Assembly (NCBI RefSeq): GCF_022846255.1 | Contig: NZ_AP025682.1 | From: Escherichia coli | Lineage (GTDB): Bacteria > Pseudomonadota > Gammaproteobacteria > Enterobacterales > Enterobacteriaceae | Reading direction: 5' to 3' (one strand) | DNA: 64,000 nucleotides | Shown here: piece by piece, positions 4,686 to 61,575 of the stretch | Layout of the letters: every line of letters begins with the position of its first letter | How positions within the stretch are numbered: position 1 is the first letter of the stretch | Notes under the pieces: generated by a model | Databases searched by the model: none | Seen by the model: only the letters and a program-made list of their open reading frames with translations | Told to the model about the DNA's origin: nothing | Made by a program: the position numbers and the translations under genes

Positions 4686-6788
4686 ATGAAGATTTTTTCC
4701 GTCCGACAAACCGTTTTGCCCGCACTGCTTGTCCTTTCCCCCGTTGTTTTTGCCGCTGATGAACAGACCATGATTGTCAGTGCCGCACCGCAGGTGGTTT
4801 CAGAACTGGATACCCCAGCAGCCGTGAGCGTGGTGGATGGCGAGGAGATGCGCCTGGCAACACCGCGCATTAACTTGTCTGAATCACTGACTGGCGTGCC
4901 TGGTTTGCAGGTACAAAACCGGCAGAACTATGCGCAAGATTTACAGCTGTCGATTCGCGGATTTGGCTCCCGCTCCACTTACGGAATTCGTGGTATTCGC
5001 CTGTATGTGGACGGTATTCCCGCCACCATGCCCGACGGACAAGGGCAAACATCTAACATCGATTTAAGCAGTGTGCAAAATGTGGAAGTGCTGCGTGGCC
5101 CCTTCTCTGCTCTGTATGGCAACGCGTCTGGCGGTGTAATGAATGTCACCACCCAGACCGGACAACAGCCACCAACCATTGAAGCCAGTAGTTACTACGG
5201 CAGTTTTGGCAGCTGGCGCTATGGGCTGAAAGCTACGGGCGCAACGGGCGACGGCACACAGCCTGGCGATGTCGATTACACCGTCTCAACCACACGTTTT
5301 ACGACCCACGGCTATCGTGACCATAGTGGCGCACAGAAAAATTTAGCCAATGCCAAACTGGGCGTTCGCATTGATGACGCCAGCAAATTAAGCCTGATTT
5401 TCAATAGTGTGGATATCAAAGCAGATGACCCAGGTGGGCTAACCGAAGCAGAATGGAAGGCGAATCCACAACAAGCGCCTCGTGCAGAACAGTACGACAC
5501 GCGAAAAACCATCAAGCAAACTCAGGCTGGGTTGCGCTATGAGCGTAGCCTGAGCGCGCAAGATGATATGAGTGTGATGATGTATGCCGGAGAGCGAGAA
5601 ACGACCCAGTACCAGTCAATCCCGATGGCCCCCCAACTTAACCCGTCGCATGCGGGCGGCGTGATTACTCTGCAACGCCATTACCAGGGGATAGACAGCC
5701 GCTGGACACACCGTGGTGATCTGGGCGTTCCGGTCACGTTCACTACCGGCCTGAACTATGAAAACATGAGTGAAAACCGCAAGGGCTACAATAACTTCCG
5801 CCTGAATAGCGGCGTGCCGGAATACGGGCAAAAAGGTGAGTTGCGCCGCGACGAACGCAATCTGATGTGGAACGTCGATCCCTATTTACAGACGCAGTGG
5901 CAGCTGAGCGAAAAACTGTCGCTGGATGCTGGCGTGCGCTACAGCTCCGTGTGGTTTGATTCCAACGACCATTACGTTACTCCGGGTAACGGCGATGACA
6001 GCGGTGATGCCAGTTATCACAAATGGCTACCTGCCGGTTCGTTAAAATATGCAATGACCGATGCCTGGAATATCTATCTGGCAGCCGGGCGAGGTTTTGA
6101 AACGCCGACGATTAATGAGCTGTCTTATCGTGCTGATGGACAAAGCGGTATGAACTTTGGGTTAAAACCCTCCACCAACGATACAATTGAGATCGGCAGT
6201 AAAACGCGTATTGGTGATGGGCTGCTTAGTCTCGCATTGTTCCAGACCGACACCGATGATGAAATTGTTGTCGATAGCAGTAGCGGTGGGCGTACGACTT
6301 ACAAAAATGCCGGAAAGACCCGTCGTCAAGGCGCTGAACTGGCATGGGCTCAACGTTTCGCGGGAGATTTTCGCGTAAAAGCGTCCTGGACCTGGCTTGA
6401 TGCGACCTATCGCAGCAATGTGTGCAATGAACAGGATTGTAACGGTAACCGGATGCCAGGGATCGCCCGTAATATGGGCTTTGCGTCGATAGGTTATATA
6501 CCGGAAGATGGTTGGTATGCAGGCACGGAAGCGCGTTATATGGGCGATATTATGGCAGATGATGAAAATACGGCCAAAGCGCCTTCTTATACACTCGTCG
6601 GCTTATTCACCGGGTATAAATACAATTACCACAATTTTACCGTGGATTTATTTGGTCGTGTCGATAATTTATTCGATAAAGAATACGTTGGCTCTGTCAT
6701 TGTCAATGAGTCAAACGGGCGATATTACGAACCTGCGCCCGGACGAAATTATGGTGTCGGCATAAATATTGCGTGGCGATTTGAGTGA
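4686..6788 (+). CDS. yncD: TonB-dependent outer membrane receptor YncD (700 aa)
   Basis: ORF track 4554..6788; start placed at MKIFSVRQTVLPALLVLSPVVFA signal peptide (ATG 4686); C-terminal ...AWRFE typical of TonB-dependent receptors. Confidence 0.9.
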   Translation: MKIFSVRQTVLPALLVLSPVVFAADEQTMIVSAAPQVVSELDTPAAVSVVDGEEMRLATPRINLSESLTGVPGLQVQNRQNYAQDLQLSIRGFGSRSTYGIRGIRLYVDGIPATMPDGQGQTSNIDLSSVQNVEVLRGPFSALYGNASGGVMNVTTQTGQQPPTIEASSYYGSFGSWRYGLKATGATGDGTQPGDVDYTVSTTRFTTHGYRDHSGAQKNLANAKLGVRIDDASKLSLIFNSVDIKADDPGGLTEAEWKANPQQAPRAEQYDTRKTIKQTQAGLRYERSLSAQDDMSVMMYAGERETTQYQSIPMAPQLNPSHAGGVITLQRHYQGIDSRWTHRGDLGVPVTFTTGLNYENMSENRKGYNNFRLNSGVPEYGQKGELRRDERNLMWNVDPYLQTQWQLSEKLSLDAGVRYSSVWFDSNDHYVTPGNGDDSGDASYHKWLPAGSLKYAMTDAWNIYLAAGRGFETPTINELSYRADGQSGMNFGLKPSTNDTIEIGSKTRIGDGLLSLALFQTDTDDEIVVDSSSGGRTTYKNAGKTRRQGAELAWAQRFAGDFRVKASWTWLDATYRSNVCNEQDCNGNRMPGIARNMGFASIGYIPEDGWYAGTEARYMGDIMADDENTAKAPSYTLVGLFTGYKYNYHNFTVDLFGRVDNLFDKEYVGSVIVNESNGRYYEPAPGRNYGVGINIAWRFE

Positions 6789-56242: not shown

Positions 56243-56270
56243 ATGCTCTGGATAAGGATCATCCAATTCT

Positions 56271-56380
56271 AAAAAAAAGCCCGGACGACTGTTCGGGCTT
56301 GTCTTCTTATATGTTGGAAAATCAGTAGCAATGCAATGGCCCAACAGAAAATAAAATCTGTGACAATAAAGGCATATAAC
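56271..56380 (-). ncRNA. micC: MicC Hfq-dependent small RNA (ompC/ompD repressor)
   Basis: Minus strand reads GTTATATGCCTTTATTGTCACAGATTTTATTTTCTGTTGGGCCATTGCATTGC...AGCCCGAACAGTCGTCCGGGCTTTTTTTT; divergent from ompN as in K-12. Confidence 0.85.
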
Positions 56381-56607
56381 CCGCGCAGAATAACGTATAG
56401 AAAATTAAAAGTATAATTTTTATTTTGTATGTGTTATCTCCAATACATTCACCAGACTTATTATCATTTCTGAAGAATTATTTAATTAAGGTTTTACTTA
56501 AGGCGTAACAAATGATATTTATCGGCTAACTGAACTTCTCCTTTAGGATGTTTTCACTCCCCAAAATGGGGATGAAAGGCAAATAAAATAACTAAAGGAT
56601 TTATTCA

Positions 56608-58348: not shown

Positions 58349-58502
58349 GATTCATTTCGCAAATGTGCTGACATTTTCCCCTCTAATCATTACAATTTAA
58401 ATTTATGAATTATGCATTGATAATCGCTATTATAATATCGTTCCCTGTGCATTATTATCAGTTTTTCTGGTATTAAAAGACTGGGCGCTAATAGGAGATG
58501 CA

Positions 58503-59004
58503 ATGAACCACGCAATGTTTCCTGGCATAGTTCTAGCCTGGATTATAGGTATGCCGCTGGGAATTGGTGCATTTATTGTAGGACTGTCTTGTGCAATTGC
58601 AACTGGCTATCTGAAAGATAATAGCATCATAAAGAAAGATACCATTATAGGTATCGTTTTTTCAGGAATTTTTGTCTTGACTATCAACAGGCACAAGTCA
58701 GCGGATTACAGATATCATTATTACATTACAGTTTACTCTGCATGGTATCGCCTACCATTTTTGCCACATTAAAAGCAGTCGGAATTATTCTGTCTATATA
58801 CTATTAACAGCTCCAGGGTCTATTGCTGTCCTCACCACGCGTCGCTTTCATAAGGCATTACTTATCGCCGTAACGATATCAATAACAATATCAGGCGTAT
58901 GGTTATTATATTTTCTCGACAGAGCCCCAGCGCCGACAATCGTCCTCTTATTTGCTGTAGCATTTCTTTTCGCGCTGATAATAATCAATTTTCGGAAACA
59001 ATAA
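58503..59004 (+). pseudogene. membrane protein remnant resembling the C-terminal half of an ABC-3 family (ZnuB/MntB/SitD-type) metal-transport permease; two frameshifts
   Basis: AGGAG-ATG start, then hydrophobic reading continues through three frames; final frame ends ...FLDRAPAPTIVLLFAVAFLFALIIINFRKQ, like the conserved ABC-3 permease C-terminus; AT-rich codon usage. Confidence 0.45.
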
Positions 59005-59283
59005 TCTCAACAGTAGAATAAAGAGGCAAATCAATCATTACATATATAAGATGGTGCTAATATTGTACCGCCTTTAAATTGAATTTTATCCTTTCACCCT
59101 TACACAATTTAAGGAATGCAGATGACTATTTTATCAGCTCCCAGCCTTTTTCCTGGTAATCGAAAACTTGAAAATCATTAACTCTAAGAAATTCTGCCAA
59201 ATCGTTGAAATTACTTTAAATTAGACTCGAACAAATCAACCCCTGATGGGGCTTTTACTTATCAATTTAATCGTGTAGATATC

Positions 59284-59331
59284 GACCTCCATCTGCCCGC
59301 CTCAGATTCGTACCTGGTGGAGGTCTTTTTT
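59284..59331 (+). terminator. orphan terminator-like hairpin with U-tract in the AT-rich remnant region
   Basis: GACCTCCA...TGGAGGTC 8-10 bp stem followed by TTTTTT; a second small hairpin (CCCCTGATGGGG) lies about 40 nt upstream; no annotated gene ends here. Confidence 0.4.
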
Positions 59332-59392
59332 CGTTGCCTCTTTCCCCCTTTAGTTCAGTATAAAATCATCAAACTAATGCTGTTCACACTAT

Positions 59393-59572
59393 TTACCTCC
59401 AGCATTCTATATAAATAATAGAAATAAAAACCCCAATACATAGTGCATTGGCATGACCAAACATCAATGCCATTATACTCGCCTCTGTTAAATACTCGCT
59501 AGTTAATATGATAGGCACGCATGATATAACAATCCATATGCTAATACATAAATACACCAGTATTTTTCTCAT
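59393..59572 (-). CDS. candidate small membrane protein (59 aa), AT-rich, unknown function
   Basis: Hand translation: MRKILVYLCISIWIVISCVPIILTSEYLTEASIMALMFGHANALCIGVFISIIYIECWR; AGGGA RBS-like 7 nt upstream; two hydrophobic segments; below ORF-track cut-off. Confidence 0.3.
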   Translation of the reverse strand: MRKILVYLCISIWIVISCVPIILTSEYLTEASIMALMFGHANALCIGVFISIIYIECWR

Positions 59573-60279
59573 AGTCAGTCCCTGTGATTAACAACAAGGC
59601 ATAGTTAAACATATTTCACATTCAAACGTAAACATTATTAATAAAATTCTGTCAATCAAACTGACATCACGATTCAAGCCCTCTTCAAACTGAAGGTTAG
59701 AGCAGCGTAGAACATTTCAAAACAATACACTAAAAAAATACCCGAACAAAAAACTTAATTCTTTTTTATTGTGAACTTTAGTAATTTTGCCATGCAACTC
59801 TTTATTACATTTAGGCCTATCTTATTTCATGGCAACGCAGATACAGGACCATTTCTTGTGCTATGGATAAGTAATAAGCTAGTTACATCTTTTTAAGAGA
59901 ACCATTTTCACATATCAAGATATCATCACCACCCACAATGAATTAAGTATTTTTCTTATTCTTTAGATTAGATGCGTAATGAATCCCTAACTCCATTCGG
60001 GCGTTATGGCTCTTTCATTTGAAATACATTCATATCCAATGTAATATTTCCATGCGCAAATATAACTACCGACCATACTCATCATTTATTACAGAGAATT
60101 ATTTTATTCACCGAAAAGTTTCACAAAATATCCCCTGATAGAAAACTAAAAAACACTGCATAATATCGCTATTCTGGCACTTGCGAAAAATTATATTCTG
60201 CACCTGTTGTAGCGTTCTATTTCTCCGCCTGGCAACGAATGCACAATGTCCGCCACAGTTTCTGTTCTAATTTCTTCCT

Positions 60280-60588
60280 GTGTTACCGCATCCTGTACGG
60301 GTAGCGCAACACCAGCATGCTAAGCAAGGCTTTCCCATCAGATTTCACTACGACTATTTGGGAGCGAGATGGAATGCAGCAGTAAAACGTGCTGGTATTC
60401 GCCGCCGTAATCCGTACCATACGCGACATACTTTTGCCTGCTGGCTGTTGACGGCAGGAGCGAACCCGGCATTTATAGCCAGCCAGATGGGGCATGAAAC
60501 TGCGCAGATGGTGTATGAAATTTACGGTATGTGGATTGATGACATGAACGACGAACAGGTAGCCATGTTAAATGCGCGGTTATCGTAG
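60280..60588 (+). pseudogene. phage tyrosine integrase, C-terminal fragment (Rac-type integrase remnant)
   Basis: ORF carries the integrase C-terminal catalytic region (...HTRHTFACWLLTAGANPAFIASQMGHETAQMVYEIY...); no N-terminal or core-binding domain; directly upstream of ttcA. Confidence 0.7.
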
Positions 60589-60639
60589 TTGCAAAGTTTG
60601 CCCTCAATATGCCCCACTTAGTACCAGAGAACTGAAATA

Positions 60640-61575
60640 ATGCAAGAAAATCAACAAATTACAAAGAAAGAACAATACAACCTGAACAAATTACAAAAAC
60701 GTCTGCGTCGTAACGTGGGCGAAGCCATTGCTGACTTCAATATGATTGAAGAAGGCGATCGCATCATGGTTTGCCTCTCCGGGGGTAAAGACAGCTATAC
60801 CATGCTGGAGATTCTGCGCAATTTGCAGCAAAGCGCGCCAATCAATTTTTCGCTGGTGGCTGTTAACCTCGATCAAAAGCAACCGGGCTTCCCGGAACAC
60901 GTTCTGCCCGAGTATCTTGAAAAGCTGGGCGTTGAGTACAAGATTGTTGAAGAGAACACTTACGGTATCGTGAAAGAGAAGATTCCGGAGGGCAAAACCA
61001 CTTGCTCACTGTGTTCTCGCCTGCGTCGCGGTATCCTTTATCGTACCGCAACGGAACTAGGGGCGACGAAGATCGCACTGGGTCACCATCGTGACGATAT
61101 CCTGCAAACGCTGTTCTTAAATATGTTCTACGGTGGCAAGATGAAAGGTATGCCTCCGAAACTGATGAGCGATGATGGCAAACATATCGTGATCCGTCCG
61201 CTGGCCTACTGCCGCGAGAAAGATATTCAGCGCTTTGCCGATGCAAAAGCGTTCCCGATTATTCCGTGCAACCTGTGCGGTTCACAGCCTAACCTGCAAC
61301 GTCAGGTGATTGCTGACATGTTGCGTGACTGGGATAAACGTTATCCGGGGCGTATCGAGACGATGTTCAGCGCAATGCAGAATGTGGTGCCGTCGCATCT
61401 GTGCGATACCAACCTGTTCGATTTCAAAGGCATTACCCACGGTTCTGAAGTGGTTAACGGGGGTGATCTGGCGTTTGATCGCGAAGAGATCCCACTACAA
61501 CCAGCGGGCTGGCAGCCTGAAGAAGATGAAAATCAGTTGGATGAGTTACGGCTGAATGTGGTTGAAGTGAAATAA
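60640..61575 (+). CDS. ttcA: tRNA-cytidine(32) 2-sulfurtransferase TtcA (311 aa)
   Basis: ORF track; PP-loop motif SGGKDS and CxxC pairs. Confidence 0.93.

Follow-up and report, generated by a model that had tools for sequence, protein, structure and literature searches.

The DNA analysed here, referred to as the window, is a stretch of 64,000 nucleotides from Escherichia coli (RefSeq assembly GCF_022846255.1, contig NZ_AP025682.1). According to RefSeq, the region of interest carries, in this order, nifJ, ompN, uspF, a frameshifted metal ABC permease gene, approximately 1.2 kb without any feature, a fragment of a DUF1627 gene, a fragment encoding the C-terminus of an integrase, ttcA, and dbpA, and it is 100% identical to the corresponding region of E. 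coli O127:H6 E2348/69. The gene for the sRNA MicC is found upstream of ompN (56263-56383, minus strand; Rfam RF00121, 122.7 bits), as expected for this region. The permease pseudogene (58406-59005, plus strand), a metal ABC transporter permease gene located between uspF and the prophage remnant described below, is annotated as a pseudogene by RefSeq in 10 out of the 10 genomes inspected (E2348/69 and nine others).

The stretch without annotated features holds a 59-codon ORF on the minus strand (59393..59572), which starts with ATG, ends with TAA, and encodes the protein MRKILVYLCISIWIVISCVPIILTSEYLTEASIMALMFGHANALCIGVFISIIYIECWR (59 aa). A Shine-Dalgarno-like AGGGA (59583-59579, minus strand) is situated 7 nt 5' of the ATG, and, since an in-frame TAA is present five codons upstream, this ATG is the first possible start. 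Position, ATG, AGGGA, and stop codon are those given in an initial annotation of the window, made from the sequence alone, whose description of a product dominated by Ile, Leu, Val, and Cys in DNA of atypical composition also agrees with the measured values. These four residues account for 46% of the protein (GRAVY 1.41), and the GC content is 33% in the ORF and 32-37% in the DNA around it (59000-60250), versus 49% in the whole window. This AT-rich setting could be silenced, and promoter scans yielded no convincing sigma-70 promoter upstream of the ORF in either of the two clades in which it occurs (see below). The length of the frame is no evidence of a gene, because 41% of the shuffled sequences reach it: when the 1225 nt of AT-rich DNA were shuffled 2000 times with dinucleotide content preserved, the longest ATG-initiated ORF averaged 57.6 +/- 16.8 aa (P(>=59 aa) = 0.41). 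What speaks for a gene are the homologs and the polymorphism data, and not the open frame.

The product is predicted to be a 59-aa helical hairpin in the inner membrane. The two hydrophobic segments reported in the initial annotation appear in the AlphaFold2 model (mean pLDDT 80.6, from a shallow alignment) as helices 2-24 and 30-58, so that the two helices occupy nearly the whole length of the protein. The first of them, TM1 (codons 3-24; 59501..59566, minus strand), contains the invariant residues W13, S17, C18, P20, I21, I22, and T24, and the second, TM2 (codons 32-55; 59408..59479, minus strand), the invariant G39, N42, A43, and G47, of which G39/A43/G47 form a small-xxx-small ladder accompanied by a buried Asn (N42). 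The chain ends four residues after TM2. Further invariant residues are Y27 in the loop and E56, W58, and R59 at the C-terminus, and the motifs conserved in both clades are W13, S17-C18-x-P20-I-I, F38-G39, N42-A43-L44, G47-V-F, and I55-E56-x-W58-R59. According to the positive-inside rule, the N-terminus (MRK) and the C-terminus (E-x-W-R) are probably cytoplasmic and joined by a short periplasmic loop, since the N-terminus carries positive charge (MRK or MK) and the chain ends in Arg. Invariant residues of the type listed above commonly bring about specific association between helices, and their pattern here points to packing of this kind and not to non-specific membrane damage. A reading of the product as a lipoprotein was rejected, as VYLC does not form a lipobox and conservation is lacking at Cys9.

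The prophage around the ORF is lambdoid, occupies the Rac-type attachment site at ttcA, and has decayed to approximately 1.6 kb. The C-terminal fragment of a tyrosine integrase (60359..60589, plus strand) abuts ttcA, and an integrase fragment at the 5' end of this gene is the arrangement of the Rac prophage attachment site of K-12. Upstream of the ORF and on its strand lie pieces of two lambdoid early genes, DUF1627 (ydaW-like) and DUF977 (lygF-like), which span 60101..60346 in the order seen in intact phages; the DUF977 fragment was located at approximately 60238-60101 by BLAST against lambdoid phage loci. A duplicate of the ttcA 5' end that could represent attR was searched for and not found, which indicates a deletion that removed the distal end of the prophage. 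The word "remnant" used in the initial annotation is therefore appropriate, with the integrase and DUF1627 fragments annotated by RefSeq and the DUF977 and hok fragments detected by BLAST.

The hok fragment, a hok/mok pseudogene (59273..59338, minus strand), lies 55 nt downstream of the ORF and is 79% identical to hokD codons 25-45. It reads TKKDLHQVRI*GGQMEVDIYT, with an in-frame TGA, versus TRKDLCEVRIRTGQTEVAVFT in HokD. The interval from the ORF to hok codon 25 is missing from the window; it would have contained sok and the promoter of hok, together with the start of mok and the part of hok that encodes the transmembrane segment. Rfam detects no sok in the window. A terminator-like hairpin, AGCCCCATCAGGGGTT, with a T-rich tail (59228..59253, minus strand; hairpin at 59253-59238), identified by a consensus scan only, is located just 3' of the hok fragment and constitutes a possible 3' end of the ORF transcript. 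On the plus strand, a second "terminator-like" hairpin, GACCTCCA...TGGAGGTC(T)6, coincides with 59273-59338 and is the antisense of the hok fragment. When the flanks (59006-60130) were compared with phage DNA, the 66-nt hok fragment was the sole match. The approximately 520 nt between 59573 and 60100 are AT-rich, lack any ORF, and show the highest polymorphism of the locus (about 4-5%); DNA searches matched them neither to any phage of the collection nor to E. coli genomes other than the approximately 1044 that carry the remnant. In addition, the sequence of the genome behind IMG/VR UViG_2684622582_000011 matches 58503-60689 of the window at 98.4% and then diverges inside the ttcA 5' end (its positions 1-1882, set against the window from 60689 onwards), which suggests a second prophage beside the remnant at the ttcA site; in that case, the attachment site would still be in use.

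Homologs in intact phages and the coding frame

Full-length homologs with 41-44% identity are encoded by the temperate Escherichia phages PhiR42_1, vB_EcoS-813R8, and vB_EcoS-640R1 (tblastn, E = 5e-11 to 2e-10), and also by prophage-like records labelled as plasmids (E about 1e-11). The tBLASTN conservation that the initial annotation had proposed as a check is thus present. All of these homologs are exactly 59 aa long and share the same start and stop with the window protein in a gap-free alignment with 24 invariant positions. The ATG of the phage-type genes is closely preceded by AGGAGG or AGGGGG, in a place equivalent to that of AGGGA in the window. As grounds against its reading, the initial annotation had named a frame without conservation in related sequences and without a translation signal; what was found is, on the contrary, a conserved frame with a Shine-Dalgarno-like motif at the same position in both clades. 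A scan of IMG/VR revealed 158 further contigs encoding a relative, and the best 80 of these 158 all match residues 1-59.

The sequences fall into two clades, the window type and the phage type, which share 59% nucleotide identity, with 25, 18, and 30 differences at codon positions 1, 2, and 3, respectively. Between them, dN is 0.45 and dS 2.1 (saturated), giving a dN/dS of ~0.2. When neutral drift was simulated with an equal number of substitutions, 3% of the runs kept the frame open, and the observed 26 identical residues out of 59 were reached with a P of 0.0008. The two clades resemble each other only within the ORF (alignment z = 16.9), and the 300 nt that precede it cannot be aligned (z about 0); in tblastx comparisons the ORF frame scores 82.6 bits versus at most 45.5 bits for the other frames. 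We conclude from these comparisons that the frame is protein-coding.

In the intact phages, the gene belongs to the nin region, on the early-right strand, after O/P, DUF1627, DUF977, and a few small ORFs. It is followed by hokD, rem, ydfU/DUF968, rusA, and Q, beyond which lie the lysis genes. The order and strand of DUF1627, DUF977, the ORF, and hok are the same in the window and in the phages, the neighbours in the window being fragments. The hokD start is located 258-260 nt downstream of the phage-type gene in 74 out of the 78 loci with enough downstream sequence, and the exceptions include IS insertions; the interval holds a genuine sok RNA gene (106.7 bits versus a gathering score of 59). 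The idea that hok is always preceded by this gene was rejected, as "phage Rac" MN652886 and HP5 have an unrelated soluble ORF (87 aa in MN652886) and mEp460 has none. The link is one-sided, since other lambdoid phages carry hok without the ORF gene upstream.

A word-indexed search of 5.8 billion proteins with the window protein returned, at full length and at least 97% identity, only E. coli entries, besides truncated or chimeric gene calls. Such entries go under the names "hypothetical" or "uncharacterized membrane protein". Public protein collections already contain the exact window protein, together with its V6M variant, and the family includes the UniRef entries A0A0J2DWW3_ECOLX, A0A2S5RMW9_ECOLX, and A0A2A7M3A7_ECOLX. 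An exhaustive HMM search of 1.8 billion representative proteins disclosed no third clade, only the two clades already described and truncated or chimeric gene calls. Similarly, a six-frame scan of 100,044 species-representative genomes gave a single match, a phage-type allele on the 5.5-kb contig JAIJJM010000167.1 from a "Collinsella" MAG, which is probably a mis-binned E. coli prophage fragment. As judged from these searches, the family is a young or fast-evolving orphan restricted to lambdoid (Qin/Rac-like) prophages of Escherichia/Shigella.

The window-type gene is uncalled in every RefSeq record inspected, and the same holds for the phage allele in every RefSeq record listed. In some phage and plasmid records, an ORF is annotated on the opposite strand instead, as "hornerin" or hypothetical (4907-5158, 4907-5164, and 4973-5158, all on the minus strand in three records). 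In the window, this opposite-strand frame is closed by several stop codons, and its annotation is probably a mis-call that hides the real gene.

Variation among Escherichia coli genomes

The window-type segment is present in 1044 out of 5426 complete E. coli genomes (19%), with one copy each, and the phage-type allele in 1568 out of the 5426 (29%). Carriers of the window type include E2348/69, ATCC 25922, ST131, and Nissle, which span pathogens and probiotics, as well as UM146 and NC101; many of the carriers are what we take to be classic, well-known phylogroup B2 strains.

The alignment of 11 remnant genomes over 1301 nt contains 50 variable sites, only one of which falls in the ORF (59557, V6M), when 7.9 would be expected from the flanks. 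This deficit is significant according to a Poisson test (P = 0.003) and a binomial test (P = 0.005), and corresponds to 4.4% of variable sites in the flanks versus 0.6% in the ORF. In these same genomes, each 180-nt window that does not overlap the ORF holds at least four variable sites. The tract of low polymorphism (59344..59593, one variable site in 250 nt) comprises the ORF, its ribosome-binding site, and 49 nt downstream. At a larger scale, the ORF shows at most one mismatch in 1017 of the 1044 genomes, while an identity of at least 99% over a 401-nt query that includes the flanks is reached in 6 of the 1044. The same holds for the phage-type clade: at 3.3 variable sites per 100 nt, the ORF varies less than any other part of its module (upstream DNA 9-37, intergenic region 14, hokD 21). 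Public protein records contain two common intact forms (on at least 1000 and on 206 contigs) and truncated variants of 54 and 57 aa (on 8 and 11 contigs, respectively).

Eight polymorphisms were seen inside the ORF, and every one of them changes an amino acid, with no synonymous change among them. The remnant clade contributes V6M, and the phage clade A16V, V31I, M37I, H40Y, V48G, V52G, and M53T. The number of events is small, and the pattern does not differ significantly from neutrality (P about 0.1). It is not the classic signature of purifying selection, and may reflect the inflation of dN/dS at very shallow divergence. The ORF has remained intact while its neighbours, including hok, decayed, and it evolves several-fold slower than the surrounding DNA. 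Considering homologs and polymorphism together, it is very likely that the ORF is a real gene under constraint.

Candidate roles of the product

Searches of Pfam, NCBIfam, PHROGs, and PADLOC produced nothing significant for either allele, and no Hok/Gef, holin, or defence family was recovered. The best PHROGs hit of the ORF protein (E = 0.067) is a family of unknown function, and no known defence or exclusion profile in PHROGs or PADLOC-DB matched. A sequence-profile search of the PDB with the ORF protein gave no match. The comparison of the AlphaFold2 model with viral structures by Foldseek retrieved nothing at E <= 0.001, an outcome to be expected, as the model is a bare hairpin. Rfam recognises no RNA family at the ORF, and promoter-like hexamers on the plus strand inside it occur at a frequency expected by chance. 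A novel antisense RNA could still escape a comparison based on sequence alone. In the literature searched, no paper containing the peptide strings was located, and the supplements of a translatomics study of EHEC (PMC4765031) hold no match to the ORF peptide; HokD is mentioned only generically in PMC10903887.

Taken as a whole, the explanation that best fits these data, and which we regard as reasonably probable, is that of a genuine and constrained prophage gene persisting in a dead prophage, with a role as a membrane accessory factor that is a guess. The favoured form of this guess, put forward tentatively from the sequence features and by analogy, is a phage accessory or exclusion-type factor that would modify a function of the inner membrane. 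The protein would pack with its own copies or with a larger host membrane protein and could, for example, keep superinfecting phages from delivering their DNA, an activity known from other small phage proteins of the inner membrane. A function in exclusion would benefit the host, and this benefit would explain why the ORF was retained after the prophage died. Such a factor is the preferred explanation for the lone and nearly invariant retention of the ORF in a dead prophage, and a free-standing toxin seems less probable than a factor of the accessory or exclusion type that acts by helix packing. Of the two possibilities offered in the initial annotation, the one of a prophage-derived small membrane factor is supported by the homologs and the helices, while the one of a membrane toxin is not favoured, given the lack of an antitoxin signal and of a toxin-family match, and the loss of hok where the ORF was kept.

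The toxin reading, which we consider unlikely, nevertheless has several features on its side. A membrane-damaging toxin, either type I-like or pinholin-like, would use the TM2 ladder and Asn42 to oligomerise into a small pore and depolarise the inner membrane, and in the phage it would serve during the lytic cycle or, beside hok/sok, as an element of addiction or abortive infection. The protein is indeed small, very hydrophobic (GRAVY 1.41), and prophage-borne, and its gene adjoins a genuine type I toxin locus on the early-right phage strand, so that induction would lead to its transcription. Helices that oligomerise into pores also typically contain small-xxx-small ladders and a buried Asn. 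However, no family of antitoxins or antisense RNAs is found beside the ORF, as Rfam gives only sok, which is hok's own and is absent from the window, and the ORF mRNA region folds no better than its shuffles (z = -0.03), unlike the structured mRNAs of type I toxins. The profile searches described above provide no link to Hok/Gef, holins, or defence toxins, and the protein has two helices and no charged C-terminal tail. Moreover, the true toxin gene hok is destroyed in the remnant, while the ORF is intact in nearly all of the 1044 genomes and truncated variants are rare, which is hard to reconcile with an unregulated toxin.

It could also be argued that the ORF is a non-functional relic, the product of which once worked in the phage and is now silent, the frame having stayed open and little changed through chance or owing to the young age of the remnant. 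Chance alone readily yields frames this long in the AT-rich tract, no promoter was found, the surroundings are all pseudogenised, and the sole substitution in the ORF among the 11 genomes is nonsynonymous (V6M). Against this stand the flanks, which have the same chromosomal history and are far more variable than the ORF (4.4% versus 0.6%, P about 0.003-0.005), the coincidence of the polymorphism trough with the ORF and its ribosome-binding site, and the conservation with at most one mismatch in 1017 of the 1044 genomes. Accordingly, we hold this possibility to be quite improbable.

A more far-reaching proposal, which we rate as rather doubtful, is that of a domesticated prophage micro-protein: the hairpin alone would have been kept under selection and would form or plug a component of the inner membrane, acting as a new type of phage exclusion or as a counter to the Hok-type toxins of incoming lambdoid phages, in whose neighbourhood the gene is always carried. 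Survival in a dead prophage in which hok was destroyed makes the ORF a candidate for prophage-gene domestication. If this proposal is true, the protein is lineage-specific, beneficial to the host, and missing from the standard annotation in roughly half of E. coli genomes.

Finally, a nucleotide-level element (such as a binding site, an RNA, or an opposite-strand gene) with the 59-codon frame as a by-product is very improbable: the lack of synonymous polymorphism in either clade and the opposite-strand ORF annotated in phage records ("hornerin" or hypothetical) would agree with it, but that frame is closed by several stops in the window, neither a fold-energy signal nor an Rfam match was obtained, and amino-acid pattern, length, start, and stop have been kept at a DNA identity of 59% (dS 2.1, dN 0.45).

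To return to the preferred reading, that of a constrained prophage gene, the ORF is a well-supported example of the small membrane proteins missed by automated annotation. The sequence is already in the databases as a hypothetical protein, and it is of a familiar kind, namely, a small prophage-encoded membrane protein; without a phenotype, the product is one more conserved hypothetical protein.

Comparison with known systems

The closest relatives are unnamed 59-aa prophage proteins from E. coli and Shigella, recorded as "hypothetical" or "membrane protein", which belong to the same family as the ORF protein and whose entries carry no functional annotation. Among families with a name, the only one giving the ORF protein any score is DUF4212/TIGR03647, the small subunit of sodium:solute symporters, which likewise has two helices. 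The scores are 13 bits versus a cut-off of 30 and 13.8 versus 26 (E = 0.14 and 0.05, respectively). Membership was rejected, because these values lie far below the cut-offs, the phage allele has no match, and there is no symporter gene nearby; the similarity is compositional only.

With the Hok/Gef toxins (PF01848), the ORF protein shares its condition of small, hydrophobic, prophage-encoded inner-membrane peptide, and both genes are physically linked in the phages, at a distance of ~260 nt. However, there is neither sequence similarity nor a profile match between them, and Hok has one helix instead of two, an N-terminal transmembrane helix with a periplasmic tail that carries a conserved Cys. 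In addition, the Hok locus comprises a mok leader, sok, and a structured mRNA, whereas the ORF has no mok-like leader, Rfam recognises no sok-like antisense RNA that would belong to it, and its mRNA region does not fold unusually.

Class II holins and pinholins, such as S21 from phage 21, are two-helix hairpins of ~60-70 aa with a small-xxx-small ladder in TM2. The ORF protein resembles them in the hairpin, in size, and in the TM2 ladder G39/A43/G47. In contrast to them, its gene is located upstream of Q, outside the lysis cassette, and the protein lacks the charged C-terminal tail, the dual-start motif, and any match to a holin family.

T4 Imm and HK97 gp15 are small phage inner-membrane proteins that mediate superinfection exclusion. 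The ORF protein has no match in PHROGs, Pfam, or PADLOC. It would resemble these proteins in being short, phage-encoded, located in the inner membrane, and devoid of an enzymatic domain; the host would gain from keeping a protein of this type, and their way of working is the one tentatively favoured here for the ORF protein.
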